From a virus (Duplodnaviria; Caudoviricetes), in IMG/VR virus record IMGVR_UViG_3300023283_000076, positions 160,001 to 224,000 of that record: a DNA stretch of 64,000 nucleotides. One strand, 5' to 3'. Position numbers and translations under genes: made by a program. The notes under the pieces were generated by a model. The model was not told the origin of the DNA, did not search any database, and saw nothing but the letters and a program-made list of their open reading frames with translations. Of this stretch, positions 612-57,158 are shown piece after piece (position 1 is the first letter of the stretch; the number at the start of each line of letters is the position of its first letter).

Positions 612-3600
612 ATGAAAGAAAGTTTAAATATAAGTTTTAACACTAATGTTCTAGTAACAGAGCATGATCCAGATAATCTCAACGGCCCGGGAAATGTTCT
701 TTTAAACAAATCAAATGCGGTACATTCTCAGAATATGGCACGGGCCATTGCGCGAGCTTTAGCAAGAGAACCCAATTCATTTGTGCATCGAATAGCTTTT
801 GGTAATGGAGGAAGCTTTACTGACGCTGGAGAAACCACCATAATCAATCCCCCTAATGATGGGACTAGGGGGGATGGATGGGAGTCACGTTTATACAATG
901 AAACATATTCCGAAATTGTAGATGAGAGTAACGTCTTAGTTGGAACGGACCCGGGTTCATCTGGACCTAACTCGAATAGAATAGGCGGTGGGGCATCTCC
1001 TACTGATGATCCGGAGGGAACTGGTGTAGTATCATTAGAAGTTGGAAGAAAATCTAACATTATCGCCACAATGTTTATTAATCAAAACGAACCAATAAGC
1101 CAACTGGAACAATCAACGATAGATCAAGAAATTACTGCTGAACAAAAAGCGTTTGAGTTTGATGAATTAGGGTTTTATACAACAGGCCAACCCGCGTTGC
1201 CCACTCCTGCTACATCGTTAATAAATGTTGGAAATAAAACATCTGAAGATATTATTCCGTCTTCAATGCTAGGCAGTCAACTTATATTAAACTATGAAAT
1301 AAATGGAGAAGAGAAACAAACAGTTTTTATTGTTCCTAGTATAGGATCAGGCCCGGGGGGTGAAGTTACGTTCGGTGATCTAGCTGAGGGAATAAACACT
1401 GGAAGCTGGTTTTCAAGTAATCCCGGAGATGATAGTACCACATTAATTAAAGTAACCATAACAGATAGAACACCGGGGGCAGTATATCCCTCCATCGCGG
1501 GATCTGAAACTTTCGGATTTTTGGTGTTTGAAAATCTTGTTGCCGGGGAAGGTAACACGTTAAAGCTTAATTGTTCGGCAATTGGTTCTGATATGTTATT
1601 TGCCTTAACTGGAAATTGCACAAAAGTTGATACCTCTACTAATAATGGTATTGATAGTGGAGTTGCTAATGATGCTGCAAATCCAGTAAATGAACGAGAA
1701 AGACTATTAACTCATTTAACATTTTCGCCTATTTTAAAAAAAGAAAATAGAGTTATAAAAATTGTGTACACGTTAACAATTTCAGTATCCCAAACGGGGG
1801 ACTGTGTTCCTAATATTGAAAATGTACCACCACCGCCATCCCCTAGCCCAACACCGTCCGTATCTGAAAGTGCTACGCCTACACCGACGCCGAGCCCCAC
1901 CCAGAGTATGGGAATTACACCTACTCCTACACAGAGTATTGGAATTACGCCTACACCATCAATATCTGATAGTGCAACACCTACACCGACACCTACACCA
2001 AGTCCTAGTGTTGCAGAACCAATGGTATTAACTATGGATACCACCCTAAATCCCAGTGGTACTGATGTAACATTGCCGATGAAAGGACCGGGAGATGTTA
2101 CTGTTGACTGGGGTGACGGAACCATGGATAGTTTTAATAATTCTACCGTAGACAGCTTTTTACAGTTCGCTCCGCATACTTATTCAACTGATGGTGTGTA
2201 CACTATTATAATTAGTGGAACATTAAATAAATTTGGAGACCTCAATATATTTATGGGAGGAGTTGTAGCGGTTAGTTCTTTTGGTGAATTAGGTACTACA
2301 AGTTTAGGAGGGGCATTAAATAATGCGACAAATTTAAATACTTTACCTGATAATATTCCATCTACTGTTACTGATGTGTCAAACATGTTCTTCAATGCTT
2401 CCAGTTTCAATATTGATATAAACTCATGGGATGTCAGTAATGTTACTAATATGGAAAATATGTTCGAAAACGCAGAATCATTTAATCAACCTCTAAACAA
2501 TTGGAATGTTTCAAATGTTACTAGTATGCACGACATGTTTGATGACGCATCCGCTTTTAATCAAGATATAAGTACATGGGATACTTCTTCAGTTACAACT
2601 ATGGAAGGAATGTTCCAGTCTGCGCAATCGTTTAATCAGCCTTTAGACAGTTGGAATGTTGCGTCTGTTAATAATATGAGTACTATGTTTCAAAATGCAA
2701 ATTCTTTTAATCAGGATCTTCCAAATTGGGATGTATCAAATGTTACTGACATGACATGGATGTTTAATGGCGCGAATATGTTTAATGGCGATATAACAAC
2801 ATGGGATACCTCATCAGTTACTGATATGGGTACTATGTTCCAAAATACTCAAGCATTCAACCAAGACATTTCAGGGTGGGATGTTTCTAATGTAACTGAT
2901 ATGTCATATATGTTCTTCAATGCTACTGCATTCAATCAAAACTTAAGTAATTGGAATACTATAAGTGTAACCCTTATGAATGACATGTTTTCTGGTGCTA
3001 GTATTTTTAATGGAGATATTTCAGGATGGGATGTTTCTAATGTAACTGATATGTCATATATGTTCTTCAATGCTACTGCATTCAATCAAAACTTAAGTAA
3101 TTGGAATACTATAAGTGCAACCCTTATGAATGACATGTTTTCTGGTGCTAGTATTTTTAATGGAGATATTTCAACATGGGATGTTTCTAATGTAACTGAT
3201 ATGTCGTTTATGTTTTCGGGTGCGCTTGCATTTAATCAAAACTTAAATAATTGGAATACTATAAATGTTACTAACATGCGATGGATGTTTGAAAACACGC
3301 CTGTATTTAATGGCGATATAACAACATGGGATACCTCATCTGTTACTGATATGGGTACTATGTTTCAAAACGCTCAAGCATTCAACCAAGACATTTCAGG
3401 GTGGGATGTATCAAATGTTACGGACATGGCATTCATGTTCTTTGGTTCTTCTTTTAATCAAGATATAAGTACATGGGTACCTTCTTCCGTTACTACCATG
3501 CAATCTATGTTTGCAAGCTCTTCTTTTGATCAGAATATCAATTCATGGAATGTTTCAAGTGTTCAAAACATAAGATTCATGTTTGGCGACTCTTCATTTA

Positions 3601-6170
3601 ACCAACCATTAAATAACTGGGATGTATCAAATGTTACTAACATGAATGGTGTTTTTCAAGATAATTCAACATTTAACCAACCATTGAATAATTGGGTCAC
3701 TTCTAGTGTCACAGACATGTCATTTATGTTCCTAAACGCAACTACATTTGATCAAGATATTTCAGGGTGGAATGTACTTAATGTTACTACTATGGAAGAA
3801 ATGTTTAAAAATGCAGCATCATTTAACCAAGAATTGAACAATTGGAATGTTTCTGGTGTATCGGTCATGCAGTCTATGTTCCAAGGTGCGGTATTATTTA
3901 ATCGACCATTGGGTAATTGGGATGTCTCTAATGTAACTGATATGAGTTTTATGTTTGATGGCGCATCCGCTTTTAATCAAGATATAAATTCATGGGTAAC
4001 TTCTTCAGTTACAACAATGAGAACGATGTTTCAGAATGCTGATGCATTTAATCAAGATCTTTCAAATTGGAATGTATCGAATGTCACAGACATGGCGTTC
4101 ATGTTCTTTGGAGCAGATATCTTTGATGGTGACATAACAACATGGACTACTTCATTGGTTACTACAATGGAAAGCATGTTCCAAAATGCAACATCGTTTA
4201 ATCAGAATTTATCAGGGTGGGATGTTTCAAATGTCACCAACATGCAAGAAATGTTTGAAGATTGTACTAATTTCAATGGAGATGTTAGCACTTGGGACGT
4301 ATCATCTGTTACCACCATGGAAAGAATGTTCGAAAACACTGAATCGTTTAATCAAGATTTAAGTTCATGGACACCAATATCTGTTACTACTATGGAAAGA
4401 ATGTTTGATAATGCAAGTGCATTTAATGGTAATGTTACGACATGGGATACATCATCTGTCACTAATATGAGAACTATGTTTCAAGATACTTTATTATTTA
4501 ACCAAGATATTTCAGGGTGGGATGTATCGAATGTTACTGACATGTCATTCATGTTCTTTAATTCTTCTTTCAATCAAGATATAAGTACATGGATACCCTC
4601 TTCCGTTACTGCCATGCAATCTATGTTTGGAAACTCCTCTTTTGATCAAAATATTGATTCGTGGGATGTTTCAAGTGTGCAAAACATAAGATTTATGTTT
4701 GGAAATTCTTCATTTAATCAACCATTAAATTCATGGGACACATCTTCTGTTGTTGACATGGGTGCTGTTTTTGAGAATAATTCAACATTTAACCAACCAT
4801 TGAATAATTGGGTCACTTCTAGTGTCACAGACATGTCATTTATGTTTAATGGGGCAAGTGCCTTTGATGGTGATGTTACTACATGGGATACGTCATCTGT
4901 CACTAATATGAGAGTCATGTTTCAAAATGCTGGAGCGTTTAATCAGGATATCTCGAATTGGAATGTAGAAAATGTTACTGACATGGAATTTATGTTTTGG
5001 AGTGCTTCAGTATTTAATCAAGATTTGAGTGGATGGTGTGTTACTAATATAACTTCAGAGCCTAATGGTTTTAGTGATAATACACCGTTAACAGCCGCTA
5101 ATAAGCCAAATTGGGGTACATGCCCAACACCTACGCCTACGCCGACTCCATCAGTATCTGAAAGTGCTACACCTACACCTACGCCGTCAGTATCTGATAG
5201 TACTACACCCACGCCTACACCTACACCGACTCCGTCGGAGCCGACAGAGCCAGCATCTCTTACTGTGTTCAGTGGGGCGCGAGATAACACTGTACGCAAG
5301 ATCGATCCGTCAACCATGACTCAAGTGGGGTCCAGTTTTACGGGGCATAGCAGTTGGGTGTTTGCATTAGCCTTTGGCACTGACGGGAATTTGTACAGTG
5401 GGTCGATAGACGACACTGTTCGCAAGATTGACCCGTCAACCATGACCCAACTGGGTTCCAGTTTTACGGCACCGGATATTGTGAATGCATTAGCCTTTGG
5501 TACCGACGGATACTTATATAGCGGGTTGAGTGATCAGACTGTTCGCAAGATTGACCCGTCAACCATGACTCAAGTGGGGTCCAGCTTTACAGGGCATACG
5601 GCTCTAGTGAACGCATTAGCCTTTGGTACAGATGGATACTTATATAGTGCATCTAATGACTTGACAGTTCGCAAAATTGATCCTTCGACCATGACGCAAG
5701 TCGGATCAAGCTTTGCGGATCACACTGTTTCAGTAAATGCATTAGCTTTTGGTACGGATGGATACTTATATAGTGGAGGCTGGGACGACACCGTTCGCAA
5801 GATTGATCCTTCGACCATGACTCAAGTAGGATCAAGCTTTACAGGACATACGGATAATTTGATCGTATTAGCTTTTGGTACCGATGGGAACTTATACAGT
5901 GGTTCGCATGATAGCACTGTGCGTAAGATTGACCCGTCAACCATGACTCAAGTAGGATCAAATTTTGTAGCCCCAGATCGTGTGCTTTCATTGGCATTTG
6001 GTACTGATGAGAATTTATATGTTGGCACGCAAGACGACACCGTCCACAAGGTTACCCCATCAGATATGACTCAGGTGGGATCCACTTTTGTAGCACATAC
6101 TGCTCGCGTACAGGCGTTAGCTGTAGATAAGAACATCACTGAAATGATTTTAGAGGCTACGCCGCCATAA
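612..6170 (+). CDS. Mosaic virion/tail-fibre-like protein: phage N-terminal domain, PT linker, about 35 DUF285/BspA-type repeats, PT linker, 7-blade WD40-like propeller
   Basis: Repeats of FNQDISxWDVSNVTDMxxMF; [10 protein letters not shown] linkers; seven copies of LYSGxxDxTVRKIDPSTMTQVGSSFTGH..VxALAFGTDG; late promoter. Confidence 0.8.
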   Translation: MKESLNISFNTNVLVTEHDPDNLNGPGNVLLNKSNAVHSQNMARAIARALAREPNSFVHRIAFGNGGSFTDAGETTIINPPNDGTRGDGWESRLYNETYSEIVDESNVLVGTDPGSSGPNSNRIGGGASPTDDPEGTGVVSLEVGRKSNIIATMFINQNEPISQLEQSTIDQEITAEQKAFEFDELGFYTTGQPALPTPATSLINVGNKTSEDIIPSSMLGSQLILNYEINGEEKQTVFIVPSIGSGPGGEVTFGDLAEGINTGSWFSSNPGDDSTTLIKVTITDRTPGAVYPSIAGSETFGFLVFENLVAGEGNTLKLNCSAIGSDMLFALTGNCTKVDTSTNNGIDSGVANDAANPVNERERLLTHLTFSPILKKENRVIKIVYTLTISVSQTGDCVPNIENVPPPPSPSPTPSVSESATPTPTPSPTQSMGITPTPTQSIGITPTPSISDSATPTPTPTPSPSVAEPMVLTMDTTLNPSGTDVTLPMKGPGDVTVDWGDGTMDSFNNSTVDSFLQFAPHTYSTDGVYTIIISGTLNKFGDLNIFMGGVVAVSSFGELGTTSLGGALNNATNLNTLPDNIPSTVTDVSNMFFNASSFNIDINSWDVSNVTNMENMFENAESFNQPLNNWNVSNVTSMHDMFDDASAFNQDISTWDTSSVTTMEGMFQSAQSFNQPLDSWNVASVNNMSTMFQNANSFNQDLPNWDVSNVTDMTWMFNGANMFNGDITTWDTSSVTDMGTMFQNTQAFNQDISGWDVSNVTDMSYMFFNATAFNQNLSNWNTISVTLMNDMFSGASIFNGDISGWDVSNVTDMSYMFFNATAFNQNLSNWNTISATLMNDMFSGASIFNGDISTWDVSNVTDMSFMFSGALAFNQNLNNWNTINVTNMRWMFENTPVFNGDITTWDTSSVTDMGTMFQNAQAFNQDISGWDVSNVTDMAFMFFGSSFNQDISTWVPSSVTTMQSMFASSSFDQNINSWNVSSVQNIRFMFGDSSFNQPLNNWDVSNVTNMNGVFQDNSTFNQPLNNWVTSSVTDMSFMFLNATTFDQDISGWNVLNVTTMEEMFKNAASFNQELNNWNVSGVSVMQSMFQGAVLFNRPLGNWDVSNVTDMSFMFDGASAFNQDINSWVTSSVTTMRTMFQNADAFNQDLSNWNVSNVTDMAFMFFGADIFDGDITTWTTSLVTTMESMFQNATSFNQNLSGWDVSNVTNMQEMFEDCTNFNGDVSTWDVSSVTTMERMFENTESFNQDLSSWTPISVTTMERMFDNASAFNGNVTTWDTSSVTNMRTMFQDTLLFNQDISGWDVSNVTDMSFMFFNSSFNQDISTWIPSSVTAMQSMFGNSSFDQNIDSWDVSSVQNIRFMFGNSSFNQPLNSWDTSSVVDMGAVFENNSTFNQPLNNWVTSSVTDMSFMFNGASAFDGDVTTWDTSSVTNMRVMFQNAGAFNQDISNWNVENVTDMEFMFWSASVFNQDLSGWCVTNITSEPNGFSDNTPLTAANKPNWGTCPTPTPTPTPSVSESATPTPTPSVSDSTTPTPTPTPTPSEPTEPASLTVFSGARDNTVRKIDPSTMTQVGSSFTGHSSWVFALAFGTDGNLYSGSIDDTVRKIDPSTMTQLGSSFTAPDIVNALAFGTDGYLYSGLSDQTVRKIDPSTMTQVGSSFTGHTALVNALAFGTDGYLYSASNDLTVRKIDPSTMTQVGSSFADHTVSVNALAFGTDGYLYSGGWDDTVRKIDPSTMTQVGSSFTGHTDNLIVLAFGTDGNLYSGSHDSTVRKIDPSTMTQVGSNFVAPDRVLSLAFGTDENLYVGTQDDTVHKVTPSDMTQVGSTFVAHTARVQALAVDKNITEMILEATPP
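1827..2010 (+). repeat. Pro/Thr/Ser mucin-like coding repeat ([10 protein letters not shown])
   Basis: Visible in translation; boundaries approximate. Confidence 0.85.
2330..5075 (+). repeat. DUF285/BspA-like ~25-aa tandem repeat array
   Basis: Periodic W-D/N-V/T-S-x-V-T-x-M-x-x-M-F...F-N-Q motif; 150-bp period visible in the DNA at 2880/3030/3180; boundaries approximate. Confidence 0.9.
5260..6130 (+). repeat. WD40-like seven-bladed beta-propeller repeats
   Basis: Seven ~42-aa near-identical units; higher GC than flanks; boundaries approximate. Confidence 0.85.
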
Positions 6171-55143: not shown

Positions 55144-55197
55144 TATTTATCCGTTTAAAGTGTTTCTAATTTCATCTTTATAAGTATAGGATAAATA
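55144..55197. promoter_or_regulatory. Divergent late promoter variants GATAAATA (- at 55144-55151, + at 55190-55197)
   Basis: ATAAATA cores about 27-30 nt from each start codon. Confidence 0.55.
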
Positions 55198-55223: not shown

Positions 55224-56222
55224 ATGCAAGAAAACAATAAACAACCTAATCCTCTTATAGAAAAGAGTAGGGCAGCTATTCCGGGTGTTGTATTTCGTCT
55301 TCCCTCACGAGGGAAAATATATGATGAGGGTGTATTAGACGAAGGTGTAGAAGAAGGCGAGGTGCTAGTATATCCAATGCGCCTAAAAGAGGAACTCAAA
55401 ATGAAATCAGTGGATTCTATCTTACAAGGAACTGCTGTTTCTGATTCTATTAAATATTGTGTTCCTGAAGTGTTAGATCCTTTGAAATTGTGCCCGGAAG
55501 ATGTTGATTATTTAATAACAACAATTAAAAAAATGACTCATGGTAGTACGTTTAAATTTAAAGATACTTGCATGAAATTAGAAGACCATACAAATATTCC
55601 TACACCAGATAATGCATTATCTGAAATGAGTGAAGAAAATAGAACAAGTAATATTGAACTCCCCGAAGATGTCTCTCAAGATGACTCTGAGGGTTCTGAA
55701 AACAAAGCTGACACGCAAGATGCAATTAAAAAAGAAAATATAAACAATCTTGGAGAAAATAGTAGCGTATGTGAATTTAACGTGTCTTTGGATTTTTTTC
55801 TTAATAATGCAAAAGAACTTAATATTGATGAATATAAAGAAAAAAATGCATTAACATTGAATGGATTTAATATAGAATTTCATCCCATCACATTTGAAGC
55901 GTTTAAAGAATTAAATACGTTAAATCTTAAAGACCAAACTAAAATGGATGATGAAGAATATTTTAATTTTATAAATGAATTTAGTAATGTTAATATAGCT
56001 AGAAGAATTAAAAAAGTTGATGATATATCAGATCCAAATATTATATCTGAATGGGTAGAAACGTTATCTTTAAGTGATAGAGAAAAAATATTTAATAAGG
56101 TAGCTGAACTGCAAGACTGGGGTATAGACTTTTCGTATAATATTAAATGTAATACATGCGGGAAAACTAAAAAAACGGATCAATCATATATAAATCCGTT
56201 GTATTTTTTTTTAATATACTAA
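55224..56222 (+). CDS. Baseplate hub assembly chaperone (gp26-like)
   Basis: LPSRG..Y..PMRLKEE..DVDYL..I..MTHG; C-terminal CNTCG..NPLYFF. Confidence 0.8.
   Translation: MQENNKQPNPLIEKSRAAIPGVVFRLPSRGKIYDEGVLDEGVEEGEVLVYPMRLKEELKMKSVDSILQGTAVSDSIKYCVPEVLDPLKLCPEDVDYLITTIKKMTHGSTFKFKDTCMKLEDHTNIPTPDNALSEMSEENRTSNIELPEDVSQDDSEGSENKADTQDAIKKENINNLGENSSVCEFNVSLDFFLNNAKELNIDEYKEKNALTLNGFNIEFHPITFEAFKELNTLNLKDQTKMDDEEYFNFINEFSNVNIARRIKKVDDISDPNIISEWVETLSLSDREKIFNKVAELQDWGIDFSYNIKCNTCGKTKKTDQSYINPLYFFLIY
56204..56213 (+). promoter_or_regulatory. Candidate -1 programmed frameshift site (T9 run; T TTT TTT / T TTT TTA)
   Basis: -1 frame is open from the T-run into ORF 56255. Confidence 0.6.
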
Positions 56223-56254
56223 AGATCGGAAATACTGAGGAAATTACAAAATAT

Positions 56255-56461
56255 ATGAAAGCCCTGCAAAAGGGTAGCAGAAATCTTATACAATCTGCTA
56301 TACATATATCATATTTCATGCGTGGAGGCATTCAGTATGAAGATGTACTTGAAAGAACTTTCTTTGAAAGAAGCGAAATGATAGATTACATAAATGATAG
56401 GATAAAACGTGAATCAGAAAAATGCAGGGAGAGTAAAGGAAAGCTCCCGCCAATATACTAA
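56255..56461 (+). CDS. gp51-like small chaperone, possibly expressed as a frameshift fusion
   Basis: ISYFMRGGIQYEDVLERTFFER; downstream of the gp26-like gene. Confidence 0.7.
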   Translation: MKALQKGSRNLIQSAIHISYFMRGGIQYEDVLERTFFERSEMIDYINDRIKRESEKCRESKGKLPPIY

Positions 56462-57158
56462 TATAATTTCTATAGACCCATCCACCAGTTGTACTGGATT
56501 ATGTATAAATGGAAAGTTATATACTATTGTTCAACACGAACTCGCATATACTAAAAAAGATAAAGCAAAACGATGGTTCGAACTTTCTTCTTCGTTCTGT
56601 GATATAATAACATATAATAAAAGATCTAAAACCGGTTCTTATTCAGAAGAAGAAATATCAAAACTTGAGTATTATTATAATATAACCGATCATATAATTA
56701 ATGTAATAAAATCTAACGTTGTTGATTTTAAAAATTCAGTTGTTTTAATAGAAGGATTTAGCTATGGTTCGTCTTCTGGTCATTTAATAGATTTAGTTGG
56801 TCTTTCTACTCTAGTCAGATCAAGATTATGGAATATGGGTTTTAATATAAAAATTATAGCACCCGCAGACTTAAAAGCAATGACTGCAAGATTAAGTTAC
56901 GACCCTATAGATGTTGGCAAAAAGAAACCTAAATTAGAGTGGAGAAACAATAGTGGTGTGTCTGGTGGATCCTTTGATAAACATGATATGTATTCAGCAA
57001 TATTAGACAGTAGTAAAACAAACTCAAAATGGAAAACATTTTTACAAGAATATTCAGATGAAATATTGAACATGAAAAATGTTCCAAAACCTATAGATGA
57101 TATTAATGATGCGTTTTTATTATATAAAATATTTAAAGAGAGTTTAACCCCCCGATAA
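56409..57158 (+). CDS. RuvC-like Holliday junction resolvase (start uncertain)
   Basis: ISIDPSTSCTG, VLIEGFSYG, P.DLK, DDINDA. Confidence 0.8.
   Translation: MNQKNAGRVKESSRQYTNIISIDPSTSCTGLCINGKLYTIVQHELAYTKKDKAKRWFELSSSFCDIITYNKRSKTGSYSEEEISKLEYYYNITDHIINVIKSNVVDFKNSVVLIEGFSYGSSSGHLIDLVGLSTLVRSRLWNMGFNIKIIAPADLKAMTARLSYDPIDVGKKKPKLEWRNNSGVSGGSFDKHDMYSAILDSSKTNSKWKTFLQEYSDEILNMKNVPKPIDDINDAFLLYKIFKESLTPR

Follow-up and report, generated by a model that had tools for sequence, protein, structure and literature searches.

A probable programmed −1 frameshift would produce gp26-like and gp51-like forms from a single T4-type baseplate hub gene

The tail assembly chaperone genes of long-tailed phages reportedly share a conserved −1 frameshift, as exemplified by gpG and gpGT of phage lambda and said to have been described by Xu, Hendrix and Duda in 2004. 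In phage P2, E and E+E' are likewise related by a −1 frameshift on a T run, and in E. coli the tau and gamma products of dnaX depend on A_AAA_AAG with a downstream hairpin. A −1 frameshift that yields two tail assembly chaperones, one short and one long, is the rule among long-tailed phages, from which T4-type phages have so far seemed to deviate, and the roles of the T4 proteins gp26 and gp51 have been obscure for decades. Leiman et al. (2010, PMC3004832) count both proteins among the chaperones of hub assembly and state that the phage particle lacks gp51. Here we analyze a hub-assembly gene of this family in a 64,000-nucleotide stretch of an uncultured giant Caudoviricetes phage (hereafter the window; positions 160,001 to 224,000 of IMG/VR record IMGVR_UViG_3300023283_000076, which is 270,653 bp long with a CheckV completeness of 79%). 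We propose that a programmed −1 slip near the end of this gene makes two forms of its product, the shorter resembling gp26 and the longer resembling gp51. The mechanism is known in kind, as a −1 slip near the end of a tail assembly gene; new are the gene family and the link to gp26 and gp51. No published report of this frameshift was found in the full-text literature, and the genome papers of the related phages XacN1, Atu_ph07 and RsoM2USA do not contain the word ‘frameshift’.

The hub-assembly gene occupies positions 55224-56222 of the plus strand, on which all window features given with coordinates in this text lie, and its 0 frame encodes a short product of 332 amino acids with a gp26-like architecture that ends in NPLYFF-LIY-stop. 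As the original prediction stated, the reading frame ends on a T run (TAT TTT TTT TTA ATA TAC TAA). The run is exactly nine bases long (56204-56212) and is followed by an A at 56213, and these ten bases contain a pair of overlapping heptamers in the 0-frame phase, T_TTT_TTT (56204-56210) and T_TTT_TTA (56207-56213), before the Leu-Ile-Tyr tail and TAA stop of the short product (56211-56222). The −1 frame had been described as open into a downstream open reading frame (ORF) that starts at 56255, and this is indeed so, with the last stop at 56168-56170 and an uninterrupted frame from 56171 to the TAA at 56459-56461. From 56210 this frame reads F-N-I-L-K-I-G-N-T-E-E-I-T-K-Y-M, crossing a 32-nt ‘intergenic’ gap into the ATG at 56255-56257, which is codon 16 of the extension; the GAGG that had been assigned to this ORF lies at 56237-56240, 14 nt from the ATG. 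In total, the extension comprises 83 codons plus the stop (56210-56461) and would form the C-terminal tail of a predicted long product of 412 amino acids, a length reached by a slip on either heptamer (329 + 83 or 330 + 82 residues).

In the mechanism that we propose, most ribosomes would read TTT TTT TTA ATA TAC and stop at the TAA at 56220, releasing the 332-residue short form just past the NPxxFF motif. A fraction would slip back by one base with the Phe tRNAs (or a Phe and a Leu tRNA) on U_UUU_UUU or U_UUU_UUA, re-pair in the −1 frame and add 82-83 codons up to the TAA at 56459, giving the 412-residue long form with a tail predicted to fold as a helical hairpin, the gp51 architecture. One gene would thereby supply gp26-like and gp51-like chaperones in a fixed ratio, the two having the hub domain in common and differing by the tail alone. 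We infer the ribosomal site of the slip and its efficiency, as well as a role in hub assembly as a chaperone, the latter by analogy with T4.

Taken alone, the window is unremarkable when compared with chance, and the real evidence is conservation in relatives. The T9 run is the sole homopolymer of at least nine bases in the 64 kb. The G+C content is 34.6%, and 29 in-phase T_TTT_TTN heptamers occur within the ORFs of at least 150 amino acids; among these, a long −1 frame is opened only by the heptamers at 56204 and 56207 (82-83 codons versus 0-32 for the others).

A metagenome scan with the window protein alone found no relatives. The comparison is based on two sets of loci, the first consisting of four cultured jumbo phages (Xoo-sp13, XacN1, RsoM2USA and Atu_ph07, found with tblastn) and 58 IMG/VR loci, the second of 80 loci from a second scan that was seeded with the natural fusions described below. 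Conservation of the T run and the open −1 frame in homologues had been suggested as a check; the heptamer, its phase and the open −1 frame are kept in 135 of these 142 related loci. All 62 loci of the first set share a heptamer and the open −1 frame; the heptamer is T_TTT_TTY in 57 of the 58 IMG/VR loci, and the remaining one (L044) has only the overlapping A_AAT_TTT. In the second set, 73 of 80 loci are of the frameshift type, six are in-frame and one is truncated. The shared layout consists of an in-phase T_TTT_TTY on the conserved C-terminal [N/D]PxxFF motif, a 0-frame stop 0-14 codons further on, and a −1 extension of 73-101 amino acids. In each of the four cultured jumbo phages, a small ORF lies just 3' of the hub gene in the −1 frame and is open from the in-phase T_TTT_TTN at [N/D]PxxFF. 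The IMG/VR locus L041 (positions 1992-4200 of a 318,013-bp contig), carries a tandem duplicate of the hub gene, in which both copies have an in-phase T_TTT_TTC at ..NFF and a −1 extension of about 75-80 amino acids; the junctions read ..QTNFF|RQRILALSHDEI.. and ..YSNFF|RLRLSSLDHDAI...

Synonymous positions at the slip site are conserved. Codon, start-codon and RNA-folding statistics were obtained from 30 non-redundant loci, 29 of which have T_TTT_TTY at the same position and in the same phase. The residue before FF can be N, D, Y, A, V, S, H or T (eight kinds), and its codon is always NNT where the T heptamer is present, for which the chance is about 1e-13 given each gene's own third-position T frequency and with shared descent ignored. 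The first Phe codon is always TTT, compared to 32% TTC among the other Phe codons (chance about 8e-7, again with shared descent ignored). The variety of codons before FF shows that the constraint acts on the nucleotides. Downstream of the heptamer, the −1 frame has the character of coding sequence. The 38 non-redundant extensions (73-101 amino acids) give a gap-free alignment that begins with the codon directly following the heptamer, and in a clade of 20 sequences the column entropy at positions 1, 2 and 3 of the −1-frame codons is 0.59, 0.40 and 1.32 bits, respectively. In the overlap with the 0-frame tail, the same clade varies at −1-frame position 3 only.

The identity of the hub protein follows from profile comparisons. 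The window protein matches phrog_150 ‘baseplate hub’ with an E-value of 1e-11, and the same profile matches the T4 proteins gp26 (7e-71) and gp51 (3e-84), both of which also match PF12322 T4_baseplate. It aligns with the hub proteins of Xoo-sp13, XacN1, RsoM2USA and Atu_ph07; C309, C312 and F328-F329 are invariant in this alignment and correspond to ..CPECG..EFFELL* of gp26. Of the 24 frameshifting relatives that were aligned, 22 match PF12322. An acidic insert of about 60 residues rich in Ser, Glu and Asp is found at residues ~118-180 of the window protein (~55575-55760), after the region of the first Cys pair; it is missing from the aligned proteins of Xoo-sp13, XacN1, RsoM2USA and Atu_ph07, an alignment outside which the 76%-identical relative L005 stands, and it may explain why the window protein itself has no PF12322 match. 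Residues 252-310 (55977-56153) match PF25721 ‘Phage T4 Y03C protein family’ just below the cut-off (E 2e-5, 25.3 bits for a cut-off of 27), and phrog_2192 also matches there; a small T4 ORF may therefore be a relative of the C-terminal subdomain of the hub protein.

The original prediction went further, proposing a fusion of a gp26-like with a gp51-like chaperone. The comparison supports a joined product that includes ORF 56255, but not a fusion of two chaperones, as ORF 56255 is not gp51-like as a whole. Since gp26 and gp51 are paralogues and gp51 differs by an extra C-terminal tail, we have relabelled this ORF as the gp51-type tail of the long form. T4 gp26 (208 amino acids) ends in ..CPECGKTHAHVIRGLKEFFELL*, with FF and three further residues as in the 0-frame product of the window, but the T4 gene has TTC TTT for FF and a closed −1 frame. 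T4 gp51 (249 amino acids) runs about 50 residues past the equivalent point, and its tail ends with the motif ..M/L-x-P-x-ER.. that is common to the extension, yet the extension exceeds this tail by about 25 residues and the similarity is weak. In T4 the two genes are separate and divergently transcribed, and there is no frameshift. With hhalign, the natural fusions align colinearly with a 23-member gp51 alignment, starting at residue 35 and reaching the C-terminus (E 6.5e-4, probability 27%), and the extension profile aligns with gp51 positions 222-254 (E 1.7e-3, probability 15%). Alignments of the extension or of the fusions with the single T4 gp51 or gp26 sequences are weak, and HMMER finds no match of the extension to phrog_150 or phrog_634. 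In Pfam and PHROGs, neither the 68-aa ORF nor the full 83-aa −1 stretch of the window has a match. Homologues of gp51 carry PF28602 as a second precomputed Pfam domain besides PF12322. On this weak similarity, the extension is probably a homologue of the gp51 tail. The comparison of relatives indicates that the 68-aa ORF is no gene of its own; it would be the end of a 412-aa long form with the architecture of gp51, the short form having that of gp26.

Natural fusions exist in which the same parts are joined in one frame. An earlier word-indexed search for longer proteins that bear the extension found none; an exhaustive profile search with the extension matches 778 cluster representatives, most of which are short ORF calls. 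At least 13 of these representatives are proteins of 325-351 amino acids that combine hub domain and extension in one frame, and all 13 match PF12322. The junction in these proteins, ..LDxxxxF-RxKLIxxxxEEI.., coincides with that expected from the frameshift. These fusions only demonstrate that the joined polypeptide is viable. Six lineages have the in-frame arrangement, and in each of the five genome records that were checked an adjacent short paralogue is also present, which stops right after ..GSxF... Where the lineage is truly in-frame, the T run has been lost (..QF-RQ..). A single hub-family gene is found in Xoo-sp13, XacN1, RsoM2USA and Atu_ph07, in four of five other frameshift-type records and in the whole record of the window genome, the exception being the tandem duplicate of L041. 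The pattern that these genomes suggest is one gene with the slip, or two genes without it. Parsimony on a tree of the hub domain puts two-gene forms at three positions, but the branches with good support require no more than a single origin, and those of T4 are very long.

Considering all of the above, we put the probability that a programmed −1 slip makes two forms from the hub gene at roughly 85%. Several observations weigh against this proposal. The window hub protein has no PF12322 match at E 0.1, and the homology between the extension and the gp51 tail is weak, with hhalign probabilities of only 15-27%. The ORF downstream has its own ATG at codon 16 of the extension together with a distant GAGG. 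The loci are phylogenetically related, and the p-values consequently overstate their independence. A stimulatory structure 3' of the run was not found in the window, where the 60 nt that follow have a folding energy of −1.6 kcal/mol (rank 0.98 within the gene), and the fold of a 127-nt stretch has a z-score of −1.4. Finally, runs of about nine A or T cause polymerase slippage, and T9 is long enough for it, so that the slip may not be ribosomal.

The last of these points leads to the strongest of the alternatives, in which RNA polymerase adds one U on the T9 run and ordinary translation of the altered message gives the 412-aa form, either instead of or alongside a ribosomal slip. The runs are indeed longer in the window, L005, L007 and L003 (T9) and in L008 (T8) than in most relatives, which have T6, and significant downstream structure is missing in four of these five loci. 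These long-run loci constitute one clade (support 100/100), however, so that shared descent confounds the correlation of structure with run length (Spearman 0.37, p 0.04). The T6 of most relatives (AAATTTTTTC) is too short for efficient polymerase slippage, and it is combined with a perfect in-phase X_XXY_YYZ and a stable stem, for which reasons we consider the ancestral mechanism to be ribosomal. The 60 nt after the heptamer are more stable than expected, falling below the 5th percentile of windows from the same gene in 18 of the 30 non-redundant loci (Wilcoxon p 1e-5). Only a few bases separate the heptamer from the predicted stems; the one in XacN1 and Xoo-sp13 has 11 bp and joins the sequence just past the slip site to that around the annotated ATG. 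No long stem shared by the 20 relatives examined was found with RNAalifold; the single-sequence stems lie in differing registers among the subclades, and we claim no covariation. The clade that unites the window with Xoo-sp13, XacN1, RsoM2USA, L005, L007, L008 and L051 (support 100/100) has runs of T7-T9 rather than T6C, and the longer run may compensate for the missing stem. On balance, we consider transcriptional slippage unlikely, though the most serious competitor of a ribosomal slip. Upstream of the slip site, the segment 56170-56212 consists of A7, an inverted repeat (ACGGAT at 56175-56180, ATCCGT at 56194-56199), TGTA and the T9, with a hairpin of −7.2 kcal/mol. This hairpin 5' of the slip site is weak and terminator-like or pausing; L005 retains part of it, whereas other relatives do not.

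A second alternative is that the locus simply contains two ordinary genes, with translation of ORF 56255-56461 beginning exclusively at its ATG to give a product of 68 amino acids and the relation between the frames being incidental. The ATG with its GAGG 14 nt upstream speaks for it, as do the separate small ORFs annotated in Xoo-sp13, XacN1 and Atu_ph07 and the four extensions that match a PHROG of unknown function, itself built from such small-ORF calls. However, the 15 codons before ATG 56255 correspond in the alignment to the conserved beginning of the relatives' extensions, whereas the ATG is unconserved and many relatives have no start codon for at least 30 codons. In the 30 non-redundant loci, the extension frame either contains no ATG or has its first one somewhere between codons 1 and 97. 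The extension of RsoM2USA, which has no ATG before codon 47, is unannotated, and the Met at 56255 of the window aligns with the Leu of a conserved ..AYL.. in relatives. Given the variable position of the first ATG and the Leu opposite this Met, ORF 56255 has no conserved start that would mark it as a separate gene. Moreover, the relation between the frames is −1 in every frameshift-type locus, and one-frame fusions exist. Two independent genes are thus very improbable as the full account of the locus, while a minor independent start at ATG 56255 may occur. Least credible of all is that the frameshift is a homopolymer error, the true run being T10 in a plain in-frame fusion gene or otherwise mis-assembled: although homopolymers are error-prone and the run length was checked in contigs and not in raw reads, the same T9 is reproduced without indel in contigs of two samples from one study (X1 at depth 23, probably the source of the window, and X2 at depth 3.4) and recurs in the 76%-identical relatives L005 and L006, the out-of-frame layout is present in 135 related loci from many studies with four finished phage genomes among the frameshift cases, and the real in-frame lineages have lost the T run and possess a second short gene, so that the sequencing error named as a danger in the original prediction is not upheld.

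A programmed −1 slip in the hub gene resembles the described systems to different degrees. The link to the lambda G/GT paradigm, drawn already at the outset, holds as an analogy. In both cases two proteins of different length that share their N-terminal part would come from one tail-assembly gene, by a −1 slip on X_XXY_YYZ near the 0-frame stop, with the long form expected to be the minor one. Also as in lambda, the products appear to be assembly factors and not parts of the virion, judging from the hub protein of XacN1, which was not detected in virions (PMC5852040), and from T4 gp51 (PMC3004832). In contrast to lambda, the hub gene belongs to the PF12322/phrog_150 family, with two zinc-ribbon-like Cys pairs, and would act on the baseplate hub by analogy with T4. 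It is not located beside the tape-measure gene in the window, its neighbours being divergent baseplate genes upstream and a gene for a RuvC-like resolvase (phrog_159) downstream. Neither the window hub protein nor the natural fusions match the tail-chaperone Pfam families. With E. coli dnaX, the locus would share a bacterial-type −1 tandem slip on a homopolymeric heptamer, a downstream stem in most relatives and a fixed ratio of two forms. In dnaX, however, the shifted product is the shorter one and there is an upstream Shine-Dalgarno-like element, whereas here the shifted product is longer and no such element was seen upstream.

The model of a natural fusion (pLDDT 89, pTM 0.82) has a tail of helices packed as a hairpin, and the AlphaFold2 model of the window extension is a helical hairpin as well (pLDDT 79) with the same helix pattern as the fusion tail. 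The model of the natural fusion P0021, which is not the window protein, matches a BFVD entry annotated as ‘baseplate hub assembly protein, T4-like’ (E 3e-15). With Foldseek, the fusion model retrieves nothing in the Swiss-Prot part of AlphaFold DB and nothing in the PDB at E ≤0.001, and among the AlphaFold DB clusters it retrieves the same baseplate family only; a profile search against PDB sequences gives zinc-ribbon noise only. A VIA-align comparison with PDB representatives yields only sub-threshold rows; for residues 2-92 of P0021, roughly the first 90 of the hub protein, these include the HK97 chaperone 2ob9 (Z 4.2, 79 residues aligned) and YqbN 3klu (Z 5.0, 81 residues aligned), both below the noise level of the tool. 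YqbN is presumably a tail chaperone of the XkdN type. These are among the few VIA-align rows that are not due to the helical tail, and they are a lead, not evidence. It is conceivable, if rather doubtful, that gp26 and gp51 are very distant true homologues of the lambda-type tail assembly chaperones, with a chaperone fold in the first ~90 residues. The two-form −1 slip would then be ancestral to long-tailed phages, including the T4-type, and gene duplication would have taken its place in T4 and a few other lineages, with one copy keeping and the other losing the tail.

If the hub gene is indeed expressed by a −1 slip, a large group of giant as well as marine and freshwater myoviruses (at least 135 loci) would make gp26-like and gp51-like forms from one gene. 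This would explain why T4 has two paralogous hub chaperones and predicts that the function that distinguishes them is situated in the gp51-specific tail. Hundreds of small ORFs currently called ‘hypothetical’ would be identified as mis-annotated. The cultured phages XacN1, Xoo-sp13, RsoM2USA and Atu_ph07 offer an experimental handle on the slip.

Two further observations concern the surroundings of the gene. The hub ATG has no upstream Shine-Dalgarno sequence; TATAGGATAAATA is found at 55185-55197, 27 nt 5' of this ATG, and resembles what we take to be the T4 late-promoter box, TATAAATA. In the stretch between the hub ORF and ORF 56255, no promoter-like site was found. At the other end of the locus, the RuvC-like resolvase gene (56409-57158; phrog_159, E 2.5e-16) seems to start with a GTG at 56409 that is preceded by AGGA about 8 nt upstream. 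Its start cannot be a downstream ATG because the catalytic-looking ..ISIDPS.. begins right after the stop of the extension, and the start at the GTG overlaps the final 53 nt of the −1 extension.

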